Assembly (NCBI GenBank): GCA_963804825.1
Contig: CAWDRV010000004.1
Span: forward strand, 271,278 to 335,277
DNA from: an uncultured Planctomycetia bacterium
GTDB lineage: Bacteria > Planctomycetota > Planctomycetia > Pirellulales > Thermoguttaceae
Length of the DNA stretch: 64,000 nt
Reading direction: 5' to 3'
Shown here: in pieces, positions 4,688 to 25,066 of the stretch
How the letters are laid out: the number at the start of each line of letters is the position of its first letter
Position numbering within the stretch: the stretch's first letter is position 1
Translations under genes and position numbers: made by a program
Notes under the pieces: generated by a model
Database searches by the model: none
What the model saw: the letters and a program-made list of their open reading frames with translations, nothing else
Told to the model about the DNA's origin: nothing

Positions 4688-5470
4688 TCACTCCTCCGAG
4701 CCGATCAACAACCAATCGTCCGAGAAAGGCTCCACTCCCAGGTCGATGCGGGACTTTGTGATCTCCAACCAACTACGCCCCGGAATAATGTCCTCGCGGA
4801 TGGTCTCATTGAAGTTCTTCAGCAGGTACTTGCGGAGCTTCTCGTAAGTTGCCACGCCGTTGGGATGGACCAAGAGCAAGAGGTACTGGCTTGCGCGCTT
4901 ACGATCAATTTGGGCGAGGAACGTGGCCATTGGGGAACCGGTCCGATCCAGGTCGGCCACGGCATAGAGCCGCTTTTCGGGATGGACCACGAATCCCTCG
5001 GCCTTGACCTCGACGAGAACCGCCTTCTTGCGAAATGTGCTGTCGCCACCCTGGTCGGGAATCATGTGAACCCCGTGAATGTACGTCAAGGGCTCTCCCT
5101 GGACGACGCGATCGCCGCCGACAATACCCGCCACCTCGTCTTCTTTCGCCTGGATGTAGGCCTCGACCTCCGTCTTGAGCTTGGCCAGCCGGTTGTACTC
5201 CGCGGTGTGCTGGAGCAGTTGCTTGGCCAGCGCGTCGACCTGCGCCTTGCAAGCGACGCACTCGTCCTTGGGCAGACACGGCTCATGGACCTCGCCGCCA
5301 CCGCCGCCGGGGACCACGGACGGACGCGGGGGTGGCGGCTCGTCGCCGGGTATCGCCCGGGTGATGACGATGCCGGCCAAAAACAACGTCAATACGCCGA
5401 TCACGGCGAAGAGGATGCTGAGGAACGGGAAGGTCGAGACTTCCAATCCTGCTGGCTGGCGGCGACTCAT
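4688..5470 (-). CDS. Membrane protein (N-terminal TM; possibly ExbD/TolR-like partner of upstream MotA/ExbB-like gene)
   Basis: 260-aa ORF, N-terminal TM VSTFPFLSILFAVIGVLTLFLAGIV, protein-like throughout. Confidence 0.5.
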   Translation of the reverse strand: MSRRQPAGLEVSTFPFLSILFAVIGVLTLFLAGIVITRAIPGDEPPPPRPSVVPGGGGGEVHEPCLPKDECVACKAQVDALAKQLLQHTAEYNRLAKLKTEVEAYIQAKEDEVAGIVGGDRVVQGEPLTYIHGVHMIPDQGGDSTFRKKAVLVEVKAEGFVVHPEKRLYAVADLDRTGSPMATFLAQIDRKRASQYLLLLVHPNGVATYEKLRKYLLKNFNETIREDIIPGRSWLEITKSRIDLGVEPFSDDWLLIGSEE

Positions 5471-5488
5471 GATCCCCGGCCTCCCGCG

Positions 5489-7268
5489 TTAGCGATTGAA
5501 GATCCGGCGCCACAACGTTGTGCGGGCCTCGGCCGGCTCCGGCTCCGCCACCAGCGGCGCCTCGCTGAGCGGCACGGTGACCGAGGGAGCCCGCGGCATC
5601 GTCAGCGGTGGGCTCGGCGGCATCGTCAGCGGTGGACCGATCGCCGGCGCCTTGTCCTGGCCATCTCCTCGCTGCGGTTGGGCCCCATCGAGCCAATGAG
5701 TGAAGCGGCCAATTTGCGTCGCCAGCTCGGCGACGCTGTTTTGCAGTTCGGCGCTGAAGTGCTGCGGCGCGCCTTGGAGCTGTTGCTGCGACAACTCGTG
5801 GAAGAGCCTGCCGTGCTCGATCAAGGTCTGCTGCAATTGAACGACGGCCTGCTGGAAGGCCTGGGCCTCGGAGGCCATGCCTTGCTGAGAGCGGTGCCAG
5901 GTGGCGGTGGCGGCGCCGGCCTTCTCGAAGAACTCGGCCATGCTGCGGCCGATCTGGTCGAGTTTTTGGAATCGCGTGGCGTCGCCCTGGGCGATCTGCT
6001 GCTGCATGCGCGGCCGCGGCCTCGAAATCGCCGCCGATGAGCTGACCGAGCTGCCCGATCTGCGCCTGCCACTGCGCCAGCCACCGCTGGTGCTCCTGGA
6101 AGGCCGAATCGAGGGCGTCGCGCACCACCTCCGGGAGCTTCTCATGCTGGTAGCCGAGCCGCTCCTCGGCCATGCGACGCAGCAGCGACTCGTTGGAAAA
6201 TCCCTCGATGCGGTCCAGCATCCCGTACTCGGTTTTTCGCAGCCCTTCGACGGGAAAGACCATCACGATGGCCATCACCAGGGCCAGCAAGGTCGCATCG
6301 AAGGCCGTGGCCAGTCCCTTGGTGACTTCGCCCAGCCCCTTGAGCAGGTTTTCGCCCTTGGGGGCGGCGGGTGCCGGCGGGGCGCTGCGATCAGCCGGGG
6401 CGGTCGCCGCCGGCGCCGAACCGGAGTCGCCGAGGCTGGTGTGCAGGCCGGCCACGGCGGCACTGATGCCCAGCACCGTGCCGACGAAACCCAGCAGCGG
6501 GATGCTCCAGATGAACGTGCGGAGCAGGCTGTAACCGGAATCGACGCCGGAGGCGTCCAGATCGGCCTGCTTGGCCAGGTACTCCTGGACTTCGGGGACG
6601 CTGTTTCGCGATTTGAAGTGTTCCAGGGCGCCGCGGATGCGTCGGCCGAGAATGCTCTGGCGTTCGGCCGGCGGCAGCCCGTCCAGGTGCCCGAGAAACT
6701 GATCAACGTTCGTGGGAGTGATTTGCAGGCCGATGTCCAGGGGGATCAGCTTCAGTTCCAGCTCGGCGTAGCTGAGTTGCTTCTTGACCGCGATGTACTT
6801 CAGTGCCAACAACGACATTCCCCAGCAGACGACCATGGTAATGCAGATCTGCATCGGGCCACGGCGCGCGAACAGGTCGGCAATGAACCATCCCGATCCA
6901 GGTTTTTCCACCATCACGGGCCTGCCCGACTGATCGACAAGACCGTTGCCCTCCTGGTCCTTTTGCTGAACCAGTTCGCTCCGCAGCGGCATAAAGAGGC
7001 CCAGGTAGAGCACCGCGGTGAGGACCACTCCGATCGCCGCGCCCCACCAGGCGGGGACGCTCGTGGAGCTGAGGCGGGCATCGGTTTCGCGGCGGAGGCC
7101 GGCCGCCGCCGTGGGATGAAGGGTGGCAAACGACTCGTCACCTACGGGGGCCTTGATTTCCACCAGGGCTTTGCAGCCCGGGCAGCGGCCTTTGCGTCCG
7201 ATGTACTCGGAGGAGGCTCGCATCCGGTTGTTGCAGTGCGGACAGACGACGGTGATCGCGGTTGCCAT
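5489..7268 (-). CDS. MotA/TolQ/ExbB-family proton-channel protein with N-terminal zinc ribbon (frameshift near 6000)
   Basis: CPHCNNR...CPGCK zinc ribbon. TM helices ICITMVVCWGMSLLALKYI, FIWSIPLLGFVGTVLGI, LLALVMAIVMVFPVEGL are typical of MotA/ExbB. The C-terminal part continues in ORF 5489..6145 (MQQQIAQGDATRF...). RBS GGGAGAAAG sits before the ATG at 7268. Confidence 0.6.
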
Positions 7269-7372
7269 ACGTCTTTCTCCCATGGCGGCAATCGAGGATA
7301 AGATCGGTTAATTTACATACGCCTTCAAGCTCCGGGAATTACAGCCCCCTGTCGAGGTCTCTTGCCTGCCCG

Positions 7373-9330
7373 TCACGGCGGGGAGACCGGCTCCTTCTCC
7401 TCGCGGACGCAGCGGAACCCCACGCCCTTGTCCGTCACCTGTCCGCCGTAAAGGAATTGGTTGGAGCCGATGCCCCACACGTATCCCAGCGACTTGAACT
7501 CCCCCCCCTTGGCGGCGCGCCACATCTGTCCATCGACCTCGGTCCATCCGCGCAGGAACTCGCTCGCGTTGCCGACCATGTTGTACACCATGAAGGGGCT
7601 TACGTCCTTGGGCGTATCATACACGGAGGAAGTCGAGGGGAACTTGGGGTTGTCCTTAACGTTGTGCGCGCCGCATCGTATTTGTCACCCCAGGGGAACA
7701 ACCAATCGTGATCCCCGCGGTACGCCCGCATCCACTGCTCGCGGGTGGGCAGGTCCTTTCCGGCCCAGCGTGCATACGCTTCCGCGTCCTCGTAACGGAC
7801 GCCAACGACCGGGTGGTCGTCCTTGCCGGGAGGCGGGCTGCCGTCGGTCCAGTCGGCCGGCGCGGCCCGGCCGGTCTCCCGGATGAACTTGGCGTACTGG
7901 GCATTGGTGACTTCATACTGATCGATCCAGAACGCCGGCACGTGGACGCGCCGTTGCGGCTCCTGGCGGAAGAACTTCAAAAAGGCCTCCACCGACTGGT
8001 CGTTCATGTAGTCGGAAAGGCAGTTCCGCACCTTGAGTTCGCTGTTTCCTAGACGGGCGAAGCCGACCTCGACGAAGACCATCCCAGCAGGGGCCTCACG
8101 AACGCGAACGTCCGGGGGAGGCGGGGGCGGAAACGCCTTCTGCCCCATCGTGAAGTTCAAGACCAATCCCACGATGAGGAAGGCGGCCAGGATGGCCCCG
8201 CCGGCGTACAGCCACGGCAGTTTCTCCCGCAACCATTCCTTGCGCGTCTCGAGGGGGAGCAGCTCGATGACGGGAAGTTGCCCTTCCCGATGCGTCTCCA
8301 CCGAGGCGGCCGACAACTCGTCGGTTCTCCAGATCGAGTCGCTCCGAGCCGGGGCGGCGCGGATCAAGTCTCGCAGCTCGTTGGCCATGGCCAAGGCGGT
8401 GGGAAAGCGGGATTCGGCTCGCCGCGCCATCGCCCGGGCAAGAAACTCCTGGACCTTGTGGGGCACCTCGATATTGATCCGGTCCACGGGGGCCGGCGGG
8501 ATGCCGCTGGAAATCGCTCCCACGACTTCCCCGACGGTCCCCTCGAACGGCGGCTTTGCCGTGAGGAGACAGTACATCGTGCCGCCGAGCGAAAAAATAT
8601 CGCTCCGCCGGTCCAAGGGCTTGCCCTGGCATTGTTCCGGTGACATGAAAGCAGGGGTACCCACGACCTGTCCCGTGCGCGTCAAGCTCGAGTCGCTCTC
8701 CTCGCGCACCAGGCCGAAATCCATCAGCAGGACGCGGAGGTCCGAGGAGAGCATAATGTTGGTCGGCTTGACATCGCGATGGACCAGCCCCTGATTATGG
8801 ACTGCATGAAGCCCCCGGGCCACCAACTGGATGATGCGGGCGGCGGAGCGCCAGGGGAGGGGACCACCTTGGTCCTGGACAACCTGAAGGAGGTTTCTGC
8901 CCTGGATGTACTGCATAATGATGAAGTACAAGCCGCCTTCTTCCCCCACGTCGTGGATAACCACCACGTTGGGGTGTTCGATTCGCGAACAGACGCGTGC
9001 CTCCTTGAGAAACCGCTCGATATGTTCGCGTGCGCCGAGGTTGGGGGGGAGGATTCTCAGCGCCACCGGTTTTTCCAGCGCGAGGTGCTGGGCCAGATAG
9101 ACCTCACCCATCCCGCCCCGCCCGAGCAACCGGACGATTCGGCAGCCTCGAATGACCTGCCCGCTGGCCAGAGTCTGTGTTCGTTGACGGACTTCCACGT
9201 TCTTCGCCCGCACGAGATCGCGTCGGCAGATCGTCACCGTGGGAAGCGGCGGCGCTGGGCGACCGATCCGACAAAAGGGGTCCCTCGTTTGCAGGAAGGC
9301 CAGCTTACCATGGGAGCAAATTTCTTGCAA
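7373..9330 (-). CDS. Ser/Thr protein kinase fused to FGE-sulfatase (formylglycine-generating enzyme-like) domain; frameshift near 7630
   Basis: Kinase motifs GRGGMGEVYLA, HRDVKPTNIML, DFG, SPE. The C-terminal FGE domain (PAFWIDQYEVTNAQY...) continues in ORF 7373..7624 (GNASEFL...GFRCV). The listed start at 9330 is TTG; the true start is probably a few codons downstream. Confidence 0.8.
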
Positions 9331-9414
9331 CGGGCCTGATGCCCCTAAGTGGTGGGATGGAAGAAATCGGCCCCCCCGGAAATCGGCCCGTCCTGAGTGA
9401 ATTTGTTTTGGTAA

Positions 9415-9930
9415 TTACGCGTTCCTTCGATGCGGCTCGACGTGGCTTGAGAGGTCCAGAACCGCCCTCAAGTGTGCCTTGGCCCGGCACGTCGCCACGG
9501 CCAGTGCGCCGGGAGTGAGCCGTAACTCCCGGCAGATTGCCTCCCGATTCTTGCCCGCCATGTATGCCAGGCAGATCGCCAGTTGTCTCCCTCGGAGGGT
9601 CGCCAGGGCTTCCCGGACCACCAAGTGGCGCAGTAGAATGCCGGGTGGGTCCGGCTGCCTGCCAGCGGGGGCGGACTGCCGGGTGCGTCGCCGGTGCTGC
9701 CTTCTCGCCGAGTCGGCCATTTCCCAGCGCAGCGCGCGATAGAAATAGGTCGCGGCGTGAGCGGCAGAGCAGCGATCCGCGGACCAATGGCGGCGGCAGC
9801 GGAGATAGGCCGAATGCACCACGTCCTCGGCGTCTTCCAACGTGCCTCGCAGGTGCTTTCGGCAGCAACGGATGAGGGCCGGGTAGTAACGACAAAACAA
9901 GTCGTTGAGAGATGCGAGAGACGGTGACAT
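9415..9930 (-). CDS. ECF-type RNA polymerase sigma factor
   Basis: C-terminal 171 aa of ORF 9415..10770 has sigma region 2 (HSAYLRCRRHW) and a region-4 HTH (LAICLAYMAGKNREAICRELRLTPGALAVATCRAKAHLR). ATG at 9930. The upstream part of the ORF is antisense junk. Confidence 0.7.
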   Translation of the reverse strand: MSPSLASLNDLFCRYYPALIRCCRKHLRGTLEDAEDVVHSAYLRCRRHWSADRCSAAHAATYFYRALRWEMADSARRQHRRRTRQSAPAGRQPDPPGILLRHLVVREALATLRGRQLAICLAYMAGKNREAICRELRLTPGALAVATCRAKAHLRAVLDLSSHVEPHRRNA

Positions 9931-10020
9931 AAGGGTATTCTTTTTTGGGGATAATCGTGGAGTTTTGCGCGTGCCTGGCGTAGGACACCCGCATCCACAG
10001 TCCTTAATGGCTGTCGAACG

Positions 10021-10980
10021 ATGAGCGTGGGAAAAAAATCGCTCGCTAGGGACGGGCCGGTTGCCGACGGTCTTCGGCATGACGGCGGCCGTGGGGATAC
10101 CTTCCCAGAAACCCAGACCAAGATCCTTGCTGATGCGGCCGCCGGCGATTGGGGCCCCTTTCTTGATCATTACCTGCGACCGCTCTGGCGGGAGGTGATC
10201 CTGGCATGCCGTGCGCATAGCCTTCCCCTGACCGACGCCGACGACTTGTACCAGGAACTGATGCTGCGGCTGATGCGAGACGGCCGCTTCCGTCGCGAGG
10301 TCCGCAGCCTCTTCGGTCAAGGGGGAGCCGCCGAAGGCTTCCGCGGCAACCTGGTGAGCCGGTTCCTGAAGTACCGGGAACTGCCGTTGCTGTCGGCTCG
10401 TTTCCGCACCTTTCTCAAAGGAGTGGTGCGGAACCTCGTCTACGAAGCGGTGCGGAAGGCTAGGCGGCGCCCTCGGCAGCTCACCGATTCCCGCTGGGAA
10501 GTGCTGGAGCCCTCGCTGGAAGAGTCGTGGGCTTCCTCGCTGGACCGCACTTGGGTGTCCGACTGCCTGGCGACCGCGGCCTGGCGGCTGCGGATGGAAT
10601 GCCAGTCGGCGCGGACCCGCGGGCAGAAGCGGCTTTTCGACCTCCTTTACTTGTCTACGGTGAAGGATCAATCGCCCGGCAAGATCGCGGCCGACTACGG
10701 CGTTGACCGCACGACGGTTGCCGCCCTGCTGGCCGCCGCGCGGAAACGGTTCGCGATCCTGCTGGGGCAACTTACCGGGATCGACAGCGCCGCGGAGTTG
10801 AAGAAGCTGTTAGAGGGCCGGACCAAGGACTTGACGGAGGCCCTGGCTGTGGCTCACTCCAGCCGGCTCGAGTCGGCGGAAAATCGCGTAGAATTCCCAC
10901 AAGAACCCGACTTGGGACATAGAGGTTCCAGAGGCGCCGGCCAGCGGCGGCAATCAAGCGCGAGAGGTGTCAAACCATGA
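10021..10980 (+). CDS. Sigma-70 family (ECF-like) sigma factor, translationally coupled to downstream Hsp70
   Basis: Region 2-like DADDLYQELMLRLMRDGRF and a region-4 [28 protein letters not shown]. The stop TGA overlaps the ATG of the next gene (ATGA at 10977-10980). Confidence 0.7.
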   Translation: MSVGKKSLARDGPVADGLRHDGGRGDTFPETQTKILADAAAGDWGPFLDHYLRPLWREVILACRAHSLPLTDADDLYQELMLRLMRDGRFRREVRSLFGQGGAAEGFRGNLVSRFLKYRELPLLSARFRTFLKGVVRNLVYEAVRKARRRPRQLTDSRWEVLEPSLEESWASSLDRTWVSDCLATAAWRLRMECQSARTRGQKRLFDLLYLSTVKDQSPGKIAADYGVDRTTVAALLAAARKRFAILLGQLTGIDSAAELKKLLEGRTKDLTEALAVAHSSRLESAENRVEFPQEPDLGHRGSRGAGQRRQSSARGVKP

Positions 10981-12674
10981 ACGAGCGCGCGTGTGAAGCG
11001 GTGGGCATTGATCTGGGTACGACCTACTCGTCGCTGGCGTACATGGATCAGAACATGGTCCCGCGCGTCGTCACCGACAGTTCCGGCCAGTCGGTGATGC
11101 CGAGCGTCGTCTTTTTCGACGCCGACGAGATCATCGTGGGCGAGATGGCACTACAGCAGGCCAAGCTATGCGCCGAGCGGATCGTGCAGTTCATCAAGGT
11201 CCACATGGGCGACATGTGGCGAAAAGAGATTCTCGGCCGCACCCAAACCCCCGAGAGCATCTCCGCCATCATCCTCGGCCAGCTCGTCAAGGAGGCGGAA
11301 CCGCAGATCGGGCCCATCGCCAAGGCGGTGATCACCGTGCCCGCCTACTTCACGGAGAAACGCCGCCGCGCCACGCAGCAAGCGGGCGAAATCGCCGGTC
11401 TGGACGTGATCGGCACCCTCAACGAGCCGATGGCAGCGACCCTCGCCTACGGGTTGCATCGCACCGACCGCGAACAGATCGTCGTCGTCTACGACCTGGG
11501 CGGCGGGACCTTCAACGTCACCGTGGTGCGAATCTCTCCCAACGCGCTCGAGGAACTGGCGACAACCGGCAACCGGCAACTCGGCGGCCGGGACTGGGAC
11601 CAGGTCCTGATCGACTACGTGGCCGACGACTTCCAAAAGAAGCACGGCGCGGATCTTCGCACCGATCCCCAGGCCATGCAAGACCTCTTCCTGGAAACTG
11701 AAAAGGCCAAGAGACGGCTGGGACGAATGGCGAAGACCTCGATGCGCGTTCATGGTTTCGGGCACGATCATCACGTGGAGATCACGCGCGAGAACTTCGA
11801 GGAGCTTACCGCCCACCTCCTCCAGGCCACCAAGCTGACCACCGAGATGGCCGTCCGCGACGCGAGGTTGAAATGGAGCCAGGTGGCGCGGGTTGTCCTC
11901 GTCGGCGGCTCGACGCACATGCCGGCGGTGCGGGAGATGCTAAAGAAAGTCAGCGGGCAGCCGCCCGACGTGGGCGTCAATCCCGTCGTGGCGGTGGCGC
12001 TGGGGGCGGCCATCTACGCGCACATGCTGGAAACCGGCCATGCGATGAAGGCCATCCAGCAACGTGCCGCCACGGACACCGAAGAGCCGGCCCGCGCGGA
12101 GGAACCGCGGATCTTCGTCACGCCTCCGCCCGTCCCCGAGGTCCCCGGGGTGCCGACCGTCCGCTTCGTCACCGCCCACGGCGTGGGCGTGAAGGCCCAG
12201 GCCGGCACCTCGACGCGATGGGTCAACAAGGTGCTGATTCACAAGAACACCCGCGTCCCCTGCCAGACCACGATGCAGTTCCGCACGCGGAGGACGGGGC
12301 CGAATTCGGACATCAAGATCTGCATCACCCAGGGGGACACGACCGATGTCGCCGTGGCGGAGCAGTTGGGCATCGGAACGATCAGCGGCTTGCCACCCGA
12401 CGAGCCCGACGGCCAACCGGTCAATATCACGATGGAGTTCGACGCCCAGGGGCGCCTGCACATTCGCGCCATCTACGTGCCGCGGAACCAGCAGATGCAG
12501 ATGTCGCTGGAGATCCCCGGCGGACTCCGCCCGGAGGAAGTGGTCGAGCATCGCCGCTTCCTGGAGAGCACCGGCTTCTTCCAGGCCCCGGCCGCAGAGC
12601 CGCCGCTGGTGGCGCTGGAGAACGCCGATGACGACGATGACGACGACATCTCGCTCCTGGAGGCGATTGAATGA
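10977..12674 (+). CDS. Hsp70-family chaperone lacking the alpha-helical lid (HscC-like), acidic C-terminal tail
   Basis: NBD motifs GIDLGTTYS, DLGGGTFNV and VLVGGSTHMPAV. SBD-beta-like region (IHKNTRVP...ISGLPPDEPDGQPVNITMEFDAQGRLHIRA) but no lid. Ends DDDDDDDISLLEAIE. 565 aa, intact. Confidence 0.85.
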   Translation: MNERACEAVGIDLGTTYSSLAYMDQNMVPRVVTDSSGQSVMPSVVFFDADEIIVGEMALQQAKLCAERIVQFIKVHMGDMWRKEILGRTQTPESISAIILGQLVKEAEPQIGPIAKAVITVPAYFTEKRRRATQQAGEIAGLDVIGTLNEPMAATLAYGLHRTDREQIVVVYDLGGGTFNVTVVRISPNALEELATTGNRQLGGRDWDQVLIDYVADDFQKKHGADLRTDPQAMQDLFLETEKAKRRLGRMAKTSMRVHGFGHDHHVEITRENFEELTAHLLQATKLTTEMAVRDARLKWSQVARVVLVGGSTHMPAVREMLKKVSGQPPDVGVNPVVAVALGAAIYAHMLETGHAMKAIQQRAATDTEEPARAEEPRIFVTPPPVPEVPGVPTVRFVTAHGVGVKAQAGTSTRWVNKVLIHKNTRVPCQTTMQFRTRRTGPNSDIKICITQGDTTDVAVAEQLGIGTISGLPPDEPDGQPVNITMEFDAQGRLHIRAIYVPRNQQMQMSLEIPGGLRPEEVVEHRRFLESTGFFQAPAAEPPLVALENADDDDDDDISLLEAIE

Positions 12675-12695
12675 CTGGGCCGGCACCCTCGGCGC

Positions 12696-13127
12696 TCACC
12701 GTGACCCGCTGACGGACCCTTTCTCCAAGCACTCGACGACGCGGGCGCGGAGGCTGTCGCGGCTCGACTGGGCATCCTCCTTGCACACCACCGGGACGCC
12801 GATCATCCGCTCCAACTCCTCCCGCGTCGTCAACGCATCGGTCAAGGCCGAAGTGTAGACGATGATCGGCAAGTTGGGCTGCGTGCGGCGCAGGCGGGCG
12901 CAGACGGCGGCCGCGTCGTCCAGCGGCTGGGTGCCCGGCATGAGGTGGTCCAAGATCAGCAGGTCGACGCCCCCTTGCGCAAGGCGCGCCAGCGCAGACT
13001 CGAAGTCGTCGGCAAACTCCACCTCGTACTTGGGGGAAAACAGCGCCGATACATATTGCCGCCAGCCGCGCTCGTCGTCGGCGTGCAAGATCACCTTTCG
13101 TCGTTCAGTCATCGTCAATCTCCTCAC
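12696..13127 (-). CDS. Response regulator receiver (CheY-like) protein
   Basis: KVILHADDE...DLLILDHLMPG...IIVYTS receiver-domain pattern. Overlaps the 3' end of the upstream histidine kinase gene (operon). Confidence 0.7.
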   Translation of the reverse strand: MRRLTMTERRKVILHADDERGWRQYVSALFSPKYEVEFADDFESALARLAQGGVDLLILDHLMPGTQPLDDAAAVCARLRRTQPNLPIIVYTSALTDALTTREELERMIGVPVVCKEDAQSSRDSLRARVVECLEKGSVSGSR

Positions 13128-14889
13128 AAGTTGGTGCTTTCGATCCTGCGCGGTATTGCGCGTAATCGGGAATGATCGTCAAACGTGGTCGGATGGCCTC
13201 GACGGCCGCGAGGCGTGCCTCTTCGGTCTTGGGCAGGCTGAAGGAGACCACCGTGCCGGGCGCATACGTGCCTTGCGGCTCGGTCGAGGTGGCGATCCGC
13301 ACCTGGCCGCCGAGTCGCCCGACGATATCGGCGACCAGGTAGACTCCCAGTCCCATGCCTTGCCTGTTCTCCCCCGTCACGAAGGGATTGCCCAATTGAT
13401 CGAGAATTCCGCAGGGAATCCCGCCGGCGTCGTCGCAGACGCTCATCAGACAGAAGCGGCGGGGGGCGTCGAAATCGTCGCCGGAGACGAGCTGGATGGT
13501 CCCGCTCCGTTTTTCGTGCCGGCGCCATGCCTCGTGCAGCACGCACAAGGAGTTCTTCACGCAATTGACCAGCACCTGCTGGACGGCCGGCTGGTCAATG
13601 ACCGCGCGGTGCGACTCGCGGCAGGCGTTCACCAGTTTCACGTCGGCCCGGTGCGCTTGATCGAGGAAGTATCGCTGGCACATGTCGAGCACTTCGTCGG
13701 CCACGACGCGGAGCGCGACTTCGCGCGGCTGCAAGTCGCCCAGGCCGGTGCGGGCCCGGCGGATCGCATCGCGGGTGATCTGGCGGAGGAAGACCAGGTC
13801 CTGCTTGACAAATTGCCAGGAGGGGTCTTGGGCCAGGGCGGGAAAGCCCTGTTCCACGCCGATCATGTTCTTTCCCAGGGCGTCGAGTACCGGTCGGGCG
13901 TCGTGCGACAGCCCACTGACGGCCTCGCCGGCCGCGGCCGCCGCCCGCCAGCGGCTGCGCTGCTCGGCGTCGGCGGCCCGATTGATCAGCAACGAGGCCA
14001 CGGTCCCCAGCAAGCAGAGCAACTGGGTGTCACGGCGCGTCAGCGGCCGGCCTTGACCGGCGATCGTGTGGATCTGCAAGAAACCGTGGATGGCGCCCAC
14101 CCGCCACAGCGGCAGGCACACGCAGGAGTCCATCGTCCGGCGCAGCACGCTGGGGGCGTCGGGGAGCGACGTGCCGGTGCCGTAAAACAGCGGTTTCTTT
14201 TGGGCGTAGGTCTGCGCCAGGATGTGAAAGCTGTACTTCGCCTCGACTCCCTGGTCGGCGCCGCGGCGGGGCGCGAAAACCACGCTGCCGATGTCGATGG
14301 ACCCGGGCTGCAACTGCTCACCGCAACCGGGCAGCAAGTCGATCAGCACCACGTAGGCGGCATCGGGAAAAACCTTGGCCAAGGCGTCGCAGATGGCCGC
14401 CCGCGTCTCCTGCATGCTGGTCGCATCCAGCGAGGGCAGGTCGAGAAACGCCCGCAACTGGGCAATCTGCTGCGCCGCCAGGGGCACTTCCTCGTGCGGT
14501 CCCTGGTGGTTCGCGTCCACCGACATGGTGCCCAGGTAATCGCCCTCGTCGCCGCGCGACATCTGGGCCGCCTCGGCCGTGACCGCCTCGACCAGGATCG
14601 TGGTGTTTCCCAAAATGATCTCGTCGTCGCTCTTGACTTCCCAGTCCGATTTCAGCGGTCCCAGCCAAATCGTCTCGCCGCCGCTGCGGACGAACGAGCC
14701 GTTACGGCTCAAGAGGTCGCGGTAGAGGCAGCGGGCGCCGATGTAGAGGAACTCGCCGTGCAGGTGCGAAACCTTGTTGTCCTTGAGCACGAGGTCGCAG
14801 TCCGCCCAGCGCCCGACGCTCACGACGCCCTGCCGGGTCTTGATCTGCTCGCCCTTGTCCGGCCCCTTGGTCACGCGAATATGGATCAT
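13105..14889 (-). CDS. Sensor histidine kinase with FHA and GAF domains
   Basis: N-terminal FHA (GRWADCDLVLKDNKVSHLHGEF), central GAF-like region, HisKA (LSHDARPVLDAL), HATPase_c (GMGLGVYLVADIVGRLGGQVRIAT). 594 aa, intact. Confidence 0.8.
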   Translation of the reverse strand: MIHIRVTKGPDKGEQIKTRQGVVSVGRWADCDLVLKDNKVSHLHGEFLYIGARCLYRDLLSRNGSFVRSGGETIWLGPLKSDWEVKSDDEIILGNTTILVEAVTAEAAQMSRGDEGDYLGTMSVDANHQGPHEEVPLAAQQIAQLRAFLDLPSLDATSMQETRAAICDALAKVFPDAAYVVLIDLLPGCGEQLQPGSIDIGSVVFAPRRGADQGVEAKYSFHILAQTYAQKKPLFYGTGTSLPDAPSVLRRTMDSCVCLPLWRVGAIHGFLQIHTIAGQGRPLTRRDTQLLCLLGTVASLLINRAADAEQRSRWRAAAAAGEAVSGLSHDARPVLDALGKNMIGVEQGFPALAQDPSWQFVKQDLVFLRQITRDAIRRARTGLGDLQPREVALRVVADEVLDMCQRYFLDQAHRADVKLVNACRESHRAVIDQPAVQQVLVNCVKNSLCVLHEAWRRHEKRSGTIQLVSGDDFDAPRRFCLMSVCDDAGGIPCGILDQLGNPFVTGENRQGMGLGVYLVADIVGRLGGQVRIATSTEPQGTYAPGTVVSFSLPKTEEARLAAVEAIRPRLTIIPDYAQYRAGSKAPTCEEIDDD

Positions 14890-14917
14890 GGTTGCAGTCC
14901 CCGATGAGCGAGGCGAT

Positions 14918-16333
14918 TTACTTGCGCCGCCATTTCTGCAACTCGTCTCTGGCCGCGTCTTCCGTCTTCTTGGCGACGATCTTTGTTACCCAGTCGGGGT
15001 GGGAAGCCGATATCCGCCGATTCGAGCTGGCCCGTTGGGACTTCAACTCCTTGATCTGCTTTCTCGACTCGCTGCGCACCTCGTCGAGCGTGCCGGAGAT
15101 GACGTCGCCCCAGAGGAGTTTGCCTTTCTGGAACACGCCGACGACGTAGTATTTCTCGGATCCTTCCGGCTTGGCCAGCGGCTTCTTGCCGTCCTTTGCC
15201 GAGCGCCCGATGGCTGCGAAGTTGTCCACGCCGTCGGAGCCGCGCGAAGCGGCGGCCGTCACTTCGACGGCCACGCTGTCCCAATACGAGATCCCTGCCG
15301 GGTCCGTGACGGTGATTCTTACTCGATAGGACCCAGGTTCAGAGTACTCGTGCAACGCGGCGACGGAGCCGGCCGGATTACTGCCGGCAGAGCCGTCGGC
15401 CGGCGCGGAACAACTTGCCCTGACCGTTGCAGGTTGCACCTGACCGCCGTCGCCCCAGTCAATGGCGGCCGTACACCGACCACTGTCTTCCGGAAGCCAA
15501 ACGCTCGCTCGGACAAGCACCCGCGTGCCCGATTGAGCCGAAATCAATTTCCTCTCGGCGGTCACGACCAGGGGTGCACTGACAACGGAAATCCTGCTCC
15601 CCGCCCCACCGTGGTCGCCGCCTCGATTGGTGATCAACACCGATGCCATGTACGCGCCCTTGTGGGCATAGCGGTGCGTCGCGGAAACAGTCCCCTTGAT
15701 GCGCCCCGGCCGGGCGAACGTGTCCGCCGCCTGTTCGACCACCGTGCCCACCGTGATCACGCCGTCTCCCCACTCGATTTGGGCCTGGTGTGGTGACGAT
15801 AAGCCGGCGTCCTCGAAGGTCACCTGCAACTCCGCCACCCTCCCCTGCGTCACGGTCTGGTCGGCTATCGATTCGACCGCGAGCACTACAGGATGAGGGA
15901 GCGAACGCAAGAAAACGGGTGAAGCCTTTAGCACGATCTTGTCCCAGGTGCTCTCGGTGGCAACCGTGCCTTCGATCCACAGCAGATTGCCTGCGCGCTC
16001 ACGGGAGAAGTCGATCTCGCCAGCATCCGAAATATCGATCTCCAGCACCTGGACAGTCGTATCCGTTTGCCCCGGGGGTGGGCCGACGCAAAGGCGTCTG
16101 TCGTAGGGGCGATACGCTACGAAGCGGGCTGTTCCATGGACGATCGTCCCCGCGGGCGGATGAAATCGCCACGCCCTGGCCAGGTCGTCCGTCTCGACTT
16201 GTCCAGACGCGCTCCGCAGCATCACGATGATATCCCGCAGTTGGACTAGCCGCGCGTGCGGTTCGATGCGAAAGCGGACGTTTCCCGGCGGGGACGGGAC
16301 CGCTTCGCCTTCGATCCGGACCAAATCGCCCAA
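14918..16333 (-). CDS. PKD-domain repeat protein
   Basis: Two WGDG...H.Y...G.Y PKD-like repeats (IEWGDGVITVG...ATHRYAHKGAYMASV; IDWGDGGQVQP...ALHEYSEPGSYRVRITVTD). The N-terminus may instead continue from the upstream J-like ORF via a frameshift near 16290. Confidence 0.6.
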   Translation of the reverse strand: MGDLVRIEGEAVPSPPGNVRFRIEPHARLVQLRDIIVMLRSASGQVETDDLARAWRFHPPAGTIVHGTARFVAYRPYDRRLCVGPPPGQTDTTVQVLEIDISDAGEIDFSRERAGNLLWIEGTVATESTWDKIVLKASPVFLRSLPHPVVLAVESIADQTVTQGRVAELQVTFEDAGLSSPHQAQIEWGDGVITVGTVVEQAADTFARPGRIKGTVSATHRYAHKGAYMASVLITNRGGDHGGAGSRISVVSAPLVVTAERKLISAQSGTRVLVRASVWLPEDSGRCTAAIDWGDGGQVQPATVRASCSAPADGSAGSNPAGSVAALHEYSEPGSYRVRITVTDPAGISYWDSVAVEVTAAASRGSDGVDNFAAIGRSAKDGKKPLAKPEGSEKYYVVGVFQKGKLLWGDVISGTLDEVRSESRKQIKELKSQRASSNRRISASHPDWVTKIVAKKTEDAARDELQKWRRK

Positions 16334-17235
16334 GAAAAACCTTCCCTCATCATTCCTGCCGGAAAATCGTGCTGCCAGGCGCGCGAGACAGCGGCGTCTG
16401 GGGTGAAAGCCTCCACCAGGCTCGGCCCCCCAGGATTCGTACTAGGCAAGACCGTGCCGACAAGCACGTGGAGCTCGTTGCCATGGCTGCGAATGTCGAG
16501 CAACTTGCCTTCCCAGGCTTTGTCCTGCGCTGTCGGGGTCACCGTGCCGGACGCTGCTCTCGTCTTGGTGGAAGACGATCCTCGATCAATCGCGCCGGCC
16601 ATCGGGTCGCCGCCGAACCATCCGGCAGCGTGATATCCCGCCAAGGCCAGGATTCCCAGAAGCGTCGTGGCGATCGCAGTCACCCCCCACTCTTTCGTCC
16701 ACAATCCGTGGAAGAGGCGTCTGGACCGCGGTCTGCCGCTCTTGGAGGACGGTTGCAGCGCGGCGTAGGAAGGAGACAAAACCGGTTCGACGGCCTGGGT
16801 TTCGGCAACCCCAAGCACAAGTGTATCGCCCTGTGCCTTCAGAACCGCTTCGGCCACCGCGGGCAACTGGTCCGGCACCACGTTACCTTCCGCTTCCAGC
16901 CACTCCTGCACGCCATCCAAAGACCAAGGCACGCTCGGATCCCCGCAGATCGCACCGTAAGCCTCTCGGAAAGAAGCGACGATCTTCCCGTGGTGCGCCT
17001 CGATCTTTTGCGGGTCGGAAAGAATGTCCTCGGCGCGGCCAAGCTCCCTCTGAAGCTTGACGGCCCGCGCCGCGACCTGCGGATCGGCGTGGTTCTGATA
17101 GGGGAGCAAGTCGGCGTACGCCGTGCGAACGCCTTCGAGCAATTCTTCCCGGTGCGGATCGAATCGCCGTCGGCCCAGCAGATCGTACAAATCCGCAGGC
17201 TGTCGCTCGGTCTTGAGCCAATCGCGAATCGCCAT
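16246..17235 (-). CDS. J-domain-like membrane protein (HPD replaced by HAD), DjlC-like candidate
   Basis: N-terminal DLYDLLGRRRFD...VRTAYADLLPYQNHADPQ...LSDPQK resembles a J-domain but lacks the HPD tripeptide. Internal TM VTAIATTLLGILALAGYHAAGWFGG. The C-terminal tail is low quality. Confidence 0.45.
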   Translation of the reverse strand: MAIRDWLKTERQPADLYDLLGRRRFDPHREELLEGVRTAYADLLPYQNHADPQVAARAVKLQRELGRAEDILSDPQKIEAHHGKIVASFREAYGAICGDPSVPWSLDGVQEWLEAEGNVVPDQLPAVAEAVLKAQGDTLVLGVAETQAVEPVLSPSYAALQPSSKSGRPRSRRLFHGLWTKEWGVTAIATTLLGILALAGYHAAGWFGGDPMAGAIDRGSSSTKTRAASGTVTPTAQDKAWEGKLLDIRSHGNELHVLVGTVLPSTNPGGPSLVEAFTPDAAVSRAWQHDFPAGMMREGFSWAIWSGSKAKRSRPRRETSAFASNRTRG

Positions 17236-17886: not shown

Positions 17887-18100
17887 TGCTCAACTCCCGC
17901 ACCAACCAGGCAGCGTAATGCACAAGGTTCATTGTCCCGTTGGGGTTGGTCGGTGCGCCTTCGGCGATGTCCGCCTCGAGCATTTCCACAGTGACTGGCC
18001 TCGAACCCGAGGCGGAAAGGATGCGGGCCATATCCGCCAGCCGTAATGCCTGGGGGTTTAATGGGCCGTCCGGCCGTCCTTCAGGGTTAAGGTCACTCAT
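17876..18100 (-). CDS. Hypothetical small protein
   Basis: 74-aa ORF with non-repetitive composition, paired with 17662..17886. Confidence 0.3.
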   Translation of the reverse strand: MSDLNPEGRPDGPLNPQALRLADMARILSASGSRPVTVEMLEADIAEGAPTNPNGTMNLVHYAAWLVRELSNAD

Positions 18101-18248
18101 CAGCGAGCCTTTCGGTGCCCAGCCATTACAAATGAATTACAGAAATCTGGCCCCCGGGCCTCGTAATCCGCTTGATCTTTTTCCGAAAACACGGCTCATG
18201 TGTGGATGTGCGAACGAACATGCGACATCCAACCCAAGGAGAACCAAG

Positions 18249-18599
18249 ATGACCACCAACCGCAAACGGAAAGGAGCCCGCAAGACCAACGCCTACGAGT
18301 TGGGCGACGACCTCGTAATCACCAAGACGACACGTCGGGCCTCCGGCGGCGGAACCTGGGTGTGCGGGACGATCGCCGGATACCGCTTCAACGCCCTGGT
18401 CTTTGCCGAGCACGCCGAATGCCCTGACTACGAGTTGGGCGACAGCCGCATCTCGAAGCTCTGGATCGCCCGGCTCAAGAACAAAGAGACGGTCTTCAAC
18501 TGGGACCGCGGAATGGACCAGCCGGCCACCTCTGCCAAAACGCAGGCGGTGGTCGATTTTCTGGCCGACGGATTGGCCGAACACGTTTACGGCAACTAA
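18249..18599 (+). CDS. Hypothetical protein
   Basis: ATG at 18249 preceded by AAGGAGAACC. 116 aa, [12 protein letters not shown].... Confidence 0.5.
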
Positions 18600-18634
18600 C
18601 CCCTGTTTCCCTTTTTCCCAAGGAGAATGTGTGA

Positions 18635-19239
18635 TGAAGAAGAACGAAGTGAAGATTGGCAAGGTGTACACCGCGAAGGTGACCAACAAGGTCGTCCAGG
18701 TGCGGATCGATGCGGAGAGCCGGTACGGCGGCTGGGACGCGACCAACCTGACCACCGGCAAGAAGGTCCGTGTCCAGTCGGCCCAGCGCCTGCGGGCGGC
18801 CGTCGGGGGCGACAGTGCCCAGACGGGCGGCAAGAAGGGCAAGGCCACCAAGAAGGCCAAGGCCCCGGCCGAGGCCCAACCGGCGCAAACGTCGGGCCCC
18901 ACGGCCGAAGATACGGCCAAGGACCAGCCGGTCGCCGGCACCGAGCCCGCTGCGGCCGAGAAGGCCGACAAGCCCAAGCGGACGCGGGCCAAGAAGGAGC
19001 CCAAGGAGAAACGCATTAGCGGCCTGGATGCGGCGGCCAAGGTGCTTGAAGAGTCTGGCCAGCCGATGACCTGCAAGGAGATGGTCGAGGCATCCGAGGC
19101 CAAGGGCTACTGGAAGTCGCCCGGCGGTAAGACACCCCACGCGACTCTTTACAGCGCGATCGCCCGCGAGATCAAGGCCAAGGGCGCCGAGGCCCGGTTC
19201 TCCAAGGCCGACCGCGGCAAGTTCACCCGCAAGAGCTGA
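18635..19239 (+). CDS. DNA-binding protein with C-terminal HARE-HTH winged helix and Lys/Ala-rich histone-like linker
   Basis: ATG at 18635 preceded by CCAAGGAGAA. N-terminal KOW/SH3-like region, then a [15 protein letters not shown] linker. C-terminal [34 protein letters not shown] matches the HARE-HTH pattern. Confidence 0.6.
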
Positions 19240-19416: not shown

Positions 19417-20023
19417 ATCGCGTCTCCTCCAGTGCGTAAGTACATTGTTTTCAATGGTTTAGAAAAGTCGGACAAGCAAAAGAAAGTCTGTCTATCCGGG
19501 GGCCTGTTCCCGCGGGCCAATCGGCGACGCAAGTTCCTGGGAGGACCCAAGGCCGGGGGGCCCAAAGCGGATACGCTACGTTGGGCCGTGTTGGGCCGCG
19601 CGCAACGTTGGGGGAAGGGCAAACGGCGCGACACCGGGCCAACGTGCGCAAACGTGGGGCAACAAGGGGCATTGCCTGCGGAGCGGCCGGCCTCCGTCTT
19701 GCCGGCGCCGAGGTGTGCGCCTCTGCGGTTGAATTGTCAGAATATCCAGAGCGCTTTTCGGCAAGGTCGTGCGCGATGGCCAGGGTTGATTGGCGCAGCG
19801 CGGAATGGAGAGCGCGGGAAGCACTACGCATGGCGTCCTCCCGTTGCCTGGATGATAGCGGCGATAGTATCGCGGATCGCAGAGGGAAGAGTGGGCCACG
19901 CGTCGATTACGCTGGCCAGTTGCGGGTCGGCAGGAGGGGTTTCTGGCGAGAGTGCTGCGCCTGTGCTGCGCTTGTTGGAGAAATGCCAGATTTCTCGGGG
20001 TTCTTGGGGTCTTCGTCTAGACT

Positions 20024-20068
20024 CGAAATCAGGTGCCGGGCAACCGGTTGAGGGTTCGAATCCCTTGC
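20024..20068 (+). tRNA. Partial tRNA (3' half of a class-II Ser/Leu-like tRNA): probable att-site remnant
   Basis: GGTGCCGGGCAACCGGTTGAGGGTTCGAATCCCTTGCCCTCCGC is a variable-arm, T-arm and 3' acceptor segment. No matching 5' half upstream. Similar to the 3' ends of array tRNAs at 26218 and 27879. Confidence 0.4.
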
Positions 20069-20319
20069 CCTCCGCTTCGCACTGTCTCGCACTGACTCGC
20101 ACAAGCCCGCAACTCGTAAAGAGTTGGGGCTTGTGCCATTTCTTGGGGGCGGCCTTTCTTCGTCGCACCCCGTCGCATCGTCCAGCACCAAATCGCGCCC
20201 TGAGTGCTGCGCATGCGCTGCGCTTTTTTGGGCCGACCCTGGATCGAAGCCCCCGGTCTTCATGGGCAACCGGAGTACCGGTGCCTCGTCGGTCCCTGTC
20301 GCCCGGAGGGCCATGGGCT

Positions 20320-20839
20320 CGCTGGCCATCATATTCGGCAGCCGGGCGACCGTGGCGGCGTCCTGGCCCGGGAAGAGGTGCCCGTAGGTATCCATCGTCA
20401 GCACGATCGTCGAGTGCCGCATCACCGATTGCACCGCCTTGGGGTGGGCACCGGCCATCGCCAGCCAGGCCCCGCAGGTGTGTCGGAGACTGTGGAAGTC
20501 GAGGAACTCCCCCTCGTGGTTCTTCTCTCCCAGGAAATCGCTCTCTCCCCGCCGCATAGATTCCTTGGCGTCCCGCTTGGCGGCCTTCAGCCAGGCCTGC
20601 CGGGCGTCGGCCACGTCCGCCCGGAACATCGCGGCGACGTCGGGCCGCGGCTTCATGGCCTCGGTACGAAACGGCGAAACTTCCTTCGTCTCTCCTGTCT
20701 TCCACGTTCGCCACGCTTCCTTCCACGTTTCGTATTCGGCGGCCACTGCCTGTTCCATCGCGCTGGCAAAGCCGCCCTCCCGGTAGTGGCCTAATTTGGC
20801 CGGATTCGCCCTAAAAATGGGTGTGACTTTGAAAGCCAA
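20320..20839 (-). pseudogene. Tyrosine recombinase/integrase C-terminal catalytic fragment (N-terminally truncated, stop lost)
   Basis: FHSLRHTCGAWLAMAGAHPKAVQSVMRHSTIVLTMDTYGHLF is the box II H-x-x-R...Y region. About 155 aa of catalytic domain with no N-terminal domain. The ORF then runs about 160 aa beyond the catalytic Tyr as low-quality sequence. Confidence 0.6.
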
Positions 20840-21144
20840 AAACGTCAGCGGCCCGCAAGGCTGATGCGGGTTCTAGCATTAGCCGGTTGTCTTTTCTAAC
20901 TCGTTGTCTCCATTAGGTTTGGGAGAGTTACGCAGCCCCGCTCTTGCGCCATAGCGGTTCGTAGAAGCCTGCCGGTATGGGGTTCTTGGGCCTTGGAAGT
21001 TTCGGCCCGTTCTTGTAACGATCCGGCTGGCGCTTGTCCCCGCTAAAGCGTGTTTCGGTCGCCTTGTTGCATTGTCTTCCTCTTGACTCGCTCTACGATT
21101 CGTCGTGTGTCAACAAACACCCATTAGAAAAGCGAGTTTTGGAC

Positions 21145-21384
21145 ATGTCTAATTTAGAAGCTGCGTTAATTGGGGCAATTTGCGAGGAGGGACGCGCCCC
21201 AAAAACCAAGGAGGCAATCCTAGCTGAACTCAACCACCCGGACGTAACATGCTATTGGTGGTGGTGGCAGTATTGTCCCCTCGTCATTACGAATAACTGG
21301 CAATCCCTGTCATTTGAAAGCAAACTCGTCGCAATGCTCATCGGCGCAGAGACGGCGAGTTACATACTTGCGAACATGGATTGA
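21145..21384 (+). CDS. Hypothetical small protein (lower-GC island)
   Basis: 79-aa ORF MSNLEAALIGAICEEG...CYWWWWQYC in a lower-GC segment. Confidence 0.3.
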   Translation: MSNLEAALIGAICEEGRAPKTKEAILAELNHPDVTCYWWWWQYCPLVITNNWQSLSFESKLVAMLIGAETASYILANMD

Positions 21385-21525
21385 ATTACACGGCGGTCGC
21401 ACCCTTGTAAGTGCTGGGGTCTATTCGCCATTGAACATTCGCAAGCCCGACGTAAAGCATGATGATACAACCTAAAAAGACATACTGCTCAGGCTTAACC
21501 GTTGGCGTCAATTGGCCCGCTCGCA

Positions 21526-21996
21526 TCAGCGCGCCGCCCATCCGGGAATCATTGTTCCATCCGTGGTTTGCATCTGCCACTTAGGTTGCTCGGCTTCAAG
21601 CCATTGTTGCAAAATTTCCATCTGGGCCATTACTTCTTTATCCACAAGTTTGATCGCAAAATCAGCGTGCGCGATCGCATTGCGAATATCTCTAATCGCT
21701 TTCAGCGCCTTTAAGGGCTCGCCGTCGAATAAACCAAACTTCACGCCACGACTGAGGTTTTTGCCAATACTCAATGCACCCTTACACCCCGGTTTCTTTG
21801 CCTTCAGGCATCGTATGACGGCGTTATTAAGGAACTCTGTTCCTATGAGAACCTGTGCCAGTTCGCTTTCCGGTTTGAGCACATCCAATAGGGGTTGCCC
21901 CTTCTTGTTAAGAAACTCCGCGGCTACCACCATCTTGCCATCGGGCGTTCCCTGCGCGGTCGTGCCGCGTGGAAACGGAAGAAAATACATCTCCAT
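21526..21996 (-). CDS. HEPN-domain protein (Rx4-6H motif RNAIAH)
   Basis: ATG at 21996 with GGAGG RBS. IRDIRNAIAHADF matches the HEPN Rx4-6H motif. Lower GC. Confidence 0.5.
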   Translation of the reverse strand: MEMYFLPFPRGTTAQGTPDGKMVVAAEFLNKKGQPLLDVLKPESELAQVLIGTEFLNNAVIRCLKAKKPGCKGALSIGKNLSRGVKFGLFDGEPLKALKAIRDIRNAIAHADFAIKLVDKEVMAQMEILQQWLEAEQPKWQMQTTDGTMIPGWAAR

Positions 21997-22022
21997 TTTC
22001 TGCCCTCCTATAACAGTGCCCC

Positions 22023-22069
22023 TTGACACGTAAGTGTCTTATGATACAATTCCGCCTAGAAAGGGTCAA
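22023..22069. promoter_or_regulatory. Overlapping divergent sigma70-like promoters (plus: TTGACA-N16-TACAAT; minus: TTGACC-N17-TATCAT)
   Basis: Plus strand: TTGACA 22023-22028, TACAAT 22045-22050, then ATG at 22073. Minus strand: TTGACC (rc of 22064-22069) and TATCAT (rc of 22041-22046), upstream of the HEPN gene start at 21996. Confidence 0.5.
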
Positions 22070-22072
22070 CCC

Positions 22073-22267: not shown

Positions 22268-22299
22268 CAATAAAAACGCCCGGAGCGGTGGCAACCGTT

Positions 22300-25059: not shown

Positions 25060-25066
25060 CTGTGGG

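Follow-up and report, generated by a model that had tools for sequence, protein, structure and literature searches.

A sigma factor, a lidless Hsp70 and cryptic J-domain proteins as a possible signalling module of Planctomycetota

In the genome of an uncultured Planctomycetia bacterium of the Thermoguttaceae, the gene of a divergent sigma factor of the extracytoplasmic function (ECF) type lies directly upstream of that of an Hsp70 without the α-helical lid, and a membrane protein with a degenerate J-domain is encoded nearby on the opposite strand. These genes were found in a stretch of 64,000 nucleotides (nt) of GenBank assembly GCA_963804825.1 (contig CAWDRV010000004.1, positions 271,278 to 335,277), which is called the window below. 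The same genes recur together in about a dozen related genomes of Planctomycetota, and both sides of the Hsp70/J interface carry matching non-canonical features. We propose that they form a conserved planctomycete signalling module, in which the sigma factor would be controlled by a dedicated lidless Hsp70 and its cryptic J-proteins much as sigma32 is by DnaK and DnaJ, and we give this reading a probability of about 0.45. Its parts differ in strength. Judged by their sequences, the Hsp70 and the J-like protein are very likely a dedicated chaperone/co-chaperone pair, and a functional tie of that pair to the sigma factor is likely too, the genetic tie being present in most, not all, lineages. 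More tentative, and made by analogy, is the proposal that the pair is a post-translational regulator of the sigma factor and not just one of its targets.

An earlier note, made from the sequence alone, had drawn attention to this region. The gene coordinates, the ATGA overlap between the first two genes and the 565-residue Hsp70 with nucleotide-binding domain (NBD), substrate-binding domain β (SBDβ), acidic tail and no lid were all reproduced by the map of open reading frames (ORFs) and by domain scans. The central features are as follows; predicted structures are AlphaFold2 (AF2) models, with confidence given as predicted local distance difference test (pLDDT) scores.

9946..10020, no strand: divergent intergenic region of 75 nt, expected to hold the promoters of both sigma genes; contains the motif CCTTAATGG
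10021..10980, plus strand: divergent ECF-like sigma factor, 319 aa (Sigma70_r2; TIGR02937, below cut-off; AF2 model)
10977..12674, plus strand: lidless Hsp70, 565 aa, of a planctomycete-specific clade (PF00012, E=2e-111)
10998..12032, plus strand: Hsp70 NBD, residues 8-352 (alignment to DnaK structures)
12033..12167, plus strand: Hsp70 Pro-rich spacer and linker motif VPTVRF, residues 353-397, replacing the canonical DVLLLD
12168..12548, plus strand: Hsp70 SBDβ, residues 398-524 (alignment to DnaK structures)
12549..12674, plus strand: Hsp70 C-terminus, with a remnant of helix A and the acidic tail that ends in DISLLEAIE; no SBDα lid
16246..17235, minus strand: J-like membrane protein, 329 aa, with N-terminal J-like module, transmembrane (TM) helix and small β-rich C-terminal domain
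16840..17235, minus strand: constant N-terminal module of the J-like protein, residues 1-132, a cryptic J-domain and two further helices (pLDDT >94)
17083..17091, minus strand: H49-A50-D51, counterpart of the J-domain HPD, in the helix II-III loop (alignments; DSSP of the AF2 model)
16615..16692, minus strand: predicted TM helix of the J-like protein, residues 182-207 (AF2 helix; hydrophobic WGVTAIATTLLGILALAGYHAAGWF)

Conservation of the gene cluster

Loci for comparison were collected by searches with the sigma factor and from contigs carrying close relatives of the Hsp70, and were compared by tblastn and with a profile of the J-like module; the sample is small and many of the contigs are short. 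A common gene order recurs among them. Genes for a MotA/ExbB-like protein, a kinase and a second sigma factor (ECF2) point one way, the sigma and Hsp70 genes point the other, and the J-like gene converges on the latter from downstream. An intact sigma gene stands directly 5′ of an orthologous Hsp70 gene at nine independent loci (the window, L001, L003, L007, L011, L017, L018, L026 and L028), with identities in the orthologous pairs of 46-57% for the sigma factor and 59-86% for the Hsp70. The labelled relatives are all from metagenome-assembled genomes (MAGs) of Planctomycetota, namely Planctomycetaceae, Pirellulales, Thermoguttaceae, Gemmataceae and one Blastopirellula MAG. Conservation of the sigma-Hsp70 pair across Planctomycetota, on which the earlier note had placed weight, is thus borne out, and its recurrence at independent loci, metagenomic and MAG alike, puts the arrangement far beyond chance.

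No neighbour accompanies this Hsp70 more constantly than the J-like gene. It is present and convergent downstream of the Hsp70 gene at each of the seven loci whose sequence extends far enough (the window, L003, L015, L017, L018, L028 and L029), following it immediately in all of these except the window, where it lies 3.5 kb away. The sigma and Hsp70 genes are probably co-transcribed. Their 4-nt ATGA overlap is found at three of the nine loci, the window (CC-ATG-A, 10977-10980), L001 and L028, and is therefore neither unique to the window's assembly nor universal. At L006 the sigma gene is disrupted after about residue 149 and the apparent overlap there was left uncounted.

The lidless Hsp70 and its probable partner, a cryptic J-domain protein

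Only some 40 residues follow SBDβ in the window's Hsp70, comprising one helix-A-like segment and the tail DDDDDDDISLLEAIE, and the protein therefore has no lid. Its shortness is not an assembly truncation, since all 119 listed relatives are likewise 510-630 residues long or carry other fusions; the missing lid is a trait of the family. The catalytic residues (DnaK D8, K70, E171, D194, T199 and D201) are kept in 114-119 of the 119 relatives, and SBDβ retains the equivalents of the hydrophobic pocket residues F426, V436/I436 and I438. At the position of the arch residue M404, most of the family have Arg, whereas the window's protein has Gln.

Other positions depart from DnaK throughout the clade. 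Gly takes the place of DnaK R167 in the window and in 111 of 119 relatives, and T173, Q378 and N13 are replaced by Met, Tyr and Tyr, respectively. In DnaK, R167 and T173 are part of the surface that contacts the HPD loop of the J-domain. The VLLLD linker is not conserved either, its place being taken by a variable Pro/Ala spacer with a median of about 51 residues, followed by an [LI]PxVRF motif (LPxVRF) that is found in 119 of 120 relatives right before the start of SBDβ at VTAHGVG. The C-terminus of the clade consists of an acidic run and then a conserved motif of the IPLLEPID type, of which DISLLEAIE is the window's variant (12630-12671; relatives P0017-P0058). This ending recalls the EEVD docking motif of eukaryotes.

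A neighbour-joining (NJ) tree puts the 119 relatives into a separate clade, away from E. coli DnaK/HscA and from HscC. The best NCBIfam models for the window's protein are those of DnaK and HscA, with scores far below their cut-offs, and BLASTP against E. coli HscC aligned the NBD only, at 34% identity. By sequence comparison, then, the protein belongs to a planctomycete-specific lidless clade and not to HscC. The clade is a set of paralogues, one subclade of which is linked to the sigma and J-like genes. More distant relatives (54-61% identity; L022-L025) were considered as members of the module and rejected as paralogues in other contexts.

Two further observations concern these paralogues. 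At L023 and L024, two large contigs, a paralogous lidless subclade lies downstream of Virul_Fac/SrfB-like and PQQ-propeller genes, so that the Virul_Fac/SrfB-PQQ neighbourhood is a second conserved context for a lidless Hsp70. Fusions also occur within the clade, to a Ser/Thr kinase domain in P0088 (903 aa) and to AAA_22 in P0084 (957 aa), and these point to signalling roles.

The second member of the pair was harder to recognise. Pfam DnaJ (PF00226) matched none of six members of the J-like family, even at E<=10, and a profile search of the sequences in the PDB with the family gave a J-domain only marginally (E=0.56); profile-profile and fold comparison were therefore needed. Comparison of profiles with canonical J-domains gave 83% with six sequences and, with a 155-sequence profile in hhalign, 94.7% (E=6e-8), H49 of the window's protein falling on the H33 of the HPD (His-Pro-Asp) triad. 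In the AF2 model the module (residues 1-132, pLDDT >94) contains helices at 16-20, 29-46, 52-73 and 75-97 and then two more, matching the four-helix J-domain fold, and the sequence QNHAD, which includes H49-A50-D51, is placed in the loop that joins helix II to helix III. Together with the TM helix, these results uphold the earlier description of the HAD protein as a membrane protein with a degenerate J-domain.

A word-index protein search with the N-terminal domain returned no matches; the family came to light when 1.84 billion cluster representatives were searched exhaustively with HMMER, which yielded 191 relatives. The module is nearly always N-terminal, in host proteins of 100-1287 residues with varied C-terminal parts. 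WD40 propellers are present in 15 of 81 members, while others have an FGE-sulfatase with Ig-like domains, MshEN, or a TM helix with a small domain. Tandem copies of the module occur at L015 and L027, and the 854-residue J-like protein of L003 (9653-12217, minus strand) strings together another J-like segment, more degenerate than the first, MshEN, a TM helix and a WD40 propeller. At the HPD position, among 155 sequences, the first residue is His in 130 and the last Asp in 94; the middle one is Ala in 40, Pro in 24, Ser in 18, Arg in 13 and Glu in 12. The triad is intact in 24 of 155, and most members have lost the Pro. By these comparisons and the model, the module is a genuine but cryptic J-domain family, mostly without the Pro and with an extra helical subdomain resembling that of HscB. 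Taken together, the Gly at position 167, the Met at 173 and the changed linker of the Hsp70, and the loss of the Pro from the partner J-domains, look like a rewired, private interface.

The sigma factor and its possible control

The product of the sigma gene scores 29.1 bits against Pfam Sigma70_r2 (cut-off 24) and 34.0 bits against the NCBIfam ECF model TIGR02937, below the cut-off of 42.9, with an alignment spanning positions 10-160 of the 165 in the model. Its AF2 model, built with 15 homologues, is very confident for sigma4 (pLDDT >95) and moderately so for sigma2, and has a fold of sigma2 and sigma4 without sigma1.1 or sigma3. The best PDB matches of the model in Foldseek are ECF sigma factors, namely SigL (E=0.015), AlgU, SigH, sigmaE, BldN, SigK and SigW; such proteins make up the top four and most of the top 30 matches, over 215-240 columns, with E-values of only 0.015-1. 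The protein was thus rightly described as ECF-like. Its sigma2 helices lie at about 45-87 and 125-149, sigma4 at about 200-252 and conserved C-terminal helices at 257-285, and a basic C-terminal tail of 35 residues (285-319) is unique to the window's protein. The acidic core-binding motif LTDADDLYQEL can be read in the sequence. A sigma-mimic role, as in PhyR, is possible for this protein.

Besides its C-terminal helices, an insert of about 35 residues within sigma2 is atypical for an ECF sigma factor. The insert (89-123; FRGNLxxRYLKYRELPL) is conserved yet predicted to be unstructured, with pLDDT of 36-45. Its segment FRGNLPGRYLKYRELPL is the most conserved part of the protein outside sigma4, N110 and L116 being invariant, and the invariant residues N110, L116, A126, R127 and F128 all lie within or next to the low-confidence stretch. 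From the model it is plausible that this exposed, basic-hydrophobic segment resembles a client site of an Hsp70.

The usual signs of another regulator were sought around the gene. No Pfam anti-sigma domain is present among the neighbours of the sigma gene in the window, and the ORFs of at least 50 residues between 7 and 18 kb all lack an HxxxCxxC motif. In the divergent intergenic region (9946-10020) no promoter consensus of the sigma70 type was found. At L003, L007, L012 and L001, motifs of the CCTTAATGC type precede the sigma start by 15-35 nt, with a counterpart at about 9995-10005 in the window; they may be a -10 promoter element or mark a very short leader. A GGAAC motif of the ECF -35 type was counted by eye about four times in the spacers between sigma and Hsp70 genes, against about one expected, and was set aside as too weak.

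What we infer, namely every physical interaction among sigma factor, Hsp70 and J-like protein and the direction of control, can be set out as follows. The J-like module would serve as the private co-chaperone of the equally private Hsp70, recruiting and activating it. Together the two would then act on the sigma factor as DnaK and DnaJ do on sigma32, by holding it inactive or by remodelling it, and the invariant basic-hydrophobic motif in the unstructured insert of sigma2 is the candidate client site. The input signal, which an anti-sigma factor usually provides, would come from the J-like protein through its variable C-terminal domain, and co-expression of the Hsp70 with the sigma factor would give negative feedback. 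In its most specific form, an ATP-driven chaperone would replace the anti-sigma factor in a new type of ECF sigma regulation, and cryptic HxD J-protein sensors, some membrane-anchored and others fused to WD40 or FGE-sulfatase domains, would bring in the lidless Hsp70, which would bind or free the sigma factor according to the signals that their variable domains sense; in this form we consider the proposal less likely than not.

Several observations weigh against control by the chaperones. The gene overlap is a minority state, the remaining loci having gaps of 115-355 nt between sigma and Hsp70, and the 1:1 translational coupling suggested earlier is thus not a conserved feature. Five sigma orthologues, scattered across the sigma tree, have no Hsp70 gene in the available flanks (L002, L004, L005, L010 and L012), and L015 and L029 have the Hsp70/J-like pair without the sigma factor, so that the sigma factor and the chaperone pair can each occur without the other; lone sigma factors could have their partner encoded elsewhere in those MAG genomes. 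Lidless paralogues adjoin SrfB/Virul_Fac-PQQ genes or kinase/PP2C genes, which are unrelated contexts, and this type of chaperone is therefore not intrinsically directed at sigma factors. The window's own Hsp70 has Asn (residue 180; 11514-11516, AAC; GGGTFN) at the position of DnaK D201, which is Asp in all 119 relatives; the Asn may weaken the ATPase, and it may either be genuine and attenuating or have arisen through an error in sequencing. Finally, the trees were built by NJ and carry no support values, and in Foldseek both models matched with weak E-values (0.015 and 0.1).

Much of this would also fit a different explanation, in which the Hsp70 and the J-like protein belong to the regulon of the sigma factor, which does no more than turn them on, and serve as a dedicated chaperone system in the folding, assembly or quality control of the large, variable WD40, FGE-sulfatase or membrane J-like proteins, or of the clients of these, and the sigma factor itself is not acted on. 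The pair is indeed the invariant core (7/7 loci), is found without the sigma factor and is missing beside it at five loci, and lidless paralogues adjoin many other large-protein systems. A 2026 review, moreover, sees the DnaK-derived paralogues of complex bacteria as specialised co-chaperones (PMC13580251). Against this, the Hsp70 gene takes the slot directly downstream of an ECF-type sigma gene, overlapping it by 4 nt in three lineages, and that slot normally belongs to the cognate regulator; no other regulator of the sigma factor is visible in the window, and the conserved, unstructured motif of the sigma factor would be left unexplained. We regard the explanation as possible, though on the unlikely side.

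The genes divergent from the sigma gene offer another candidate regulator:

9415..9945, minus strand: ECF2, a canonical ECF sigma factor, divergent from the sigma gene (TIGR02937, 46.9 bits, over cut-off)
7600..9330, minus strand: Ser/Thr protein kinase with TM segment and C-terminal FGE-sulfatase-type domain (Pfam Pkinase 1.3e-43, FGE-sulfatase 1.3e-27)
5283-7283, minus strand: MotA/ExbB-like ORF, upstream of the sigma gene and divergent from it, past the kinase

ECF2 is divergent from the sigma gene at L001, L003, L004, L005, L011, L013, L017, L018 and L026. An operon of ECF2, the kinase with its FGE-sulfatase ectodomain, the MotA/ExbB-like protein and a small protein (window 7600-9945, minus strand) is a conserved unit divergent from the sigma gene. 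The C-terminal 270 or so residues of the window's MotA/ExbB-like ORF are rich in Arg and Pro and resemble an out-of-frame read-through, orthologues being about 490-530 residues long; a frameshift may have produced the extension, or the ORF may really end sooner.

The kinase might control the sigma factor, ECF2 or both, as in groups ECF43, ECF59 and ECF60, with the Hsp70 and the J-like protein mechanistically separate. An orthologous kinase, likewise with the FGE-sulfatase ectodomain, stands in the equivalent position, beside ECF2 and the sigma factor, at L003, L017, L018, L026, L028 and L029; ECF groups associated with Ser/Thr kinases (STKs) have been described, some of them first found in planctomycetes (PMC7826278, PMC8103513); and the window also encodes a kinase with an FHA domain. 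However, ECF sigma factors switched by such kinases are marked by loss of the acidic DAED motif, for which they carry uncharged, phosphorylatable residues (PMC8103513). We looked for this signature and found it in neither protein: ECF2, though kinase-linked, retains the acidic LEDAEDVV and the sigma factor has LTDADDLY, as read from the sequences. The kinase, furthermore, belongs to the operon of ECF2 and not to that of the sigma factor, and is missing at L001, L004 and L005 though ECF2 and the sigma factor are still paired there. Control by the kinase thus appears improbable.

The earlier note had compared the Hsp70 with HscC of E. coli, as a similarly truncated protein with membrane-anchored J partners (DjlB and DjlC) that would act on the sigma factor as HscC does on sigma70, and there are parallels in length (565 versus 556 aa), in the membrane-anchored partner with a non-HPD triad (HPE in DjlB and DjlC) and in the reported binding of HscC to sigma70 (PMC3861889), but the likeness fails in that BLASTP sees the NBD alone, the best NCBIfam matches are to DnaK and HscA, the family has its own clade in the NJ tree far from HscC, HscC has the conserved linker and SBDα lid (PMC8215388) that the window's Hsp70 lacks, and DjlB and DjlC retain the Pro that the J-like family loses, so that this explanation is very improbable.

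The remaining genes of the region lie between the Hsp70 and J-like genes of the window:

12696..13127, minus strand: receiver-only response regulator (Pfam Response_reg 1.7e-11)
13105..14889, minus strand: FHA-GAF-HATPase histidine kinase with H-box LSHDARPVL (Pfam FHA, GAF_2, HATPase_c; H-box from sequence)
14918..16333, minus strand: PKD-domain protein (Pfam PKD_4 4.2e-12)

With the J-like gene first, followed by the PKD, FHA-GAF kinase and regulator genes, they form a set of four tightly packed genes convergent with the sigma-Hsp70 pair. The listed start of the PKD ORF runs 88 nt into the J-like gene, and its true start may lie further downstream. The kinase and regulator do sit between Hsp70 and J-like genes in the window, as had been pointed out, but the regulator, the FHA-GAF kinase and the PKD protein have no counterpart in any related locus compared. 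The two signalling proteins were therefore ruled out as conserved parts of the system, and the three genes are a lineage-specific insertion outside the conserved module, which puts the window's J-like gene into one operon with a two-component system.

PADLOC gave no defence-system match for the sigma factor, the Hsp70 or the J-like protein, only generic similarities for the kinase and receiver. A role in defence was considered and rejected, there being no such matches and the Hsp70-containing GTPase conflict systems of Kaur et al. 2020 differing in composition.

Other features of the window lie further downstream. Between the J-like gene and a recombinase, positions 17940-19239 (plus strand) encode a DUF7678 protein and another, rich in Lys, Ala and Pro, whose C-terminal domain is HARE-HTH. 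Thirty-five tRNA genes are packed into about 6 kb (24835-30816, plus strand), downstream of this tyrosine-recombinase-like ORF (19907-20839, minus strand) and of a stretch of lower GC content (20000-24000; 0.56 versus 0.63-0.67). The region could be an integrated mobile element or prophage that carries the tRNA array.

Relation to known systems

The earlier note had called the arrangement undescribed, and we likewise found no paper that describes an operon of sigma factor, Hsp70 and J-protein, within a coverage of the literature that is incomplete, so that a prior mention is possible. Neither the operon nor the J-like family is described in reviews of bacterial Hsp70s (PMC8215388, PMC13580251), in a census of J-proteins (PMC10410713), in classifications and reviews of ECF sigma factors (PMC7826278, PMC8103513), in a review of E. 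coli anti-sigma factors (PMC3861889) or in the papers of the Aravind group on conflict systems (PMC7159879, PMC8195603). The curated main dataset of the census consists of sequences with the full HPD, HPE and other variants being analysed apart (PMC10410713); the J-like module is a J-domain family undetected by Pfam, and a census limited to the full HPD would have missed it. A review of ECF regulation lists anti-sigma factors, extensions, two-component systems, kinases and TetR, and chaperones are not among them (PMC7826278), so a conserved sigma-Hsp70-J operon would add a testable mode of regulation to that catalogue. The function of the DnaK-derived, domain-truncated paralogues of ‘complex’ bacteria is regarded as an open question (PMC13580251), which becomes approachable for a clade with a defined partner family and a candidate client. 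If a chaperone does replace the anti-sigma factor here, the lidless Hsp70 paralogues that have expanded in Planctomycetota would work as switches in signalling and not as machines for protein folding. The Hsp70, with its Gly at R167 and new linker motif, appears altered in step with its J-like partner and would offer a natural experiment in the rewiring of an Hsp70/J interface.

The closest parallel in logic is the control of sigma32 by DnaK and DnaJ, whose genes are themselves under that sigma factor, making a homeostatic loop (PMC8215388). In both cases an Hsp70 and a J-protein would act on a native alternative sigma factor, a logic that is proposed here from genes alone. There, however, the general DnaK/DnaJ/GrpE machinery acts on a group-3 sigma factor and the genes are unlinked, whereas here a dedicated, lidless and non-canonical Hsp70 shares an operon with an ECF-like sigma factor and the J-proteins carry domains of sensor type.

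Other specialised Hsp70s share single features with the planctomycete protein. HscC is a short Hsp70 stimulated only by its own membrane-anchored HPE J-protein, and it is reported to co-purify with sigma70 and to inhibit it (PMC8215388, PMC3861889). It nevertheless belongs to another clade, retains the conserved linker and an SBDα lid with a 9-residue deletion in helix B (Mayer 2021, PMC8215388) and is encoded apart from any sigma gene, and DjlB and DjlC differ from the J-like family in keeping the Pro of the triad. The extra helical subdomain of the J-like module is arranged as in HscB; unlike the J-like proteins, HscB has a true HPD and no variable sensor fusions, HscA has lid and linker, and their client is IscU and not a sigma factor. 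Ssz1-Zuotin, like the lidless HSPA12 and HSPA14, is eukaryotic; it is ribosome-bound, Ssz1 works independently of ATP hydrolysis and there is no link to a transcription factor.

Among sigma factors, the ECF groups linked to Ser/Thr kinases are represented next door by the kinase-linked ECF2 (PMC7826278). The organisation of the sigma-Hsp70-J cluster is most like that of ECF/anti-sigma pairs, in which the regulator gene adjoins that of the sigma factor and a constant cytoplasmic module is joined through a TM segment to variable extracytoplasmic or sensor domains. It differs in that the constant module here is a predicted J-domain rather than an anti-sigma domain, and in that an ATPase, the Hsp70, would be interposed between sensor and sigma factor.

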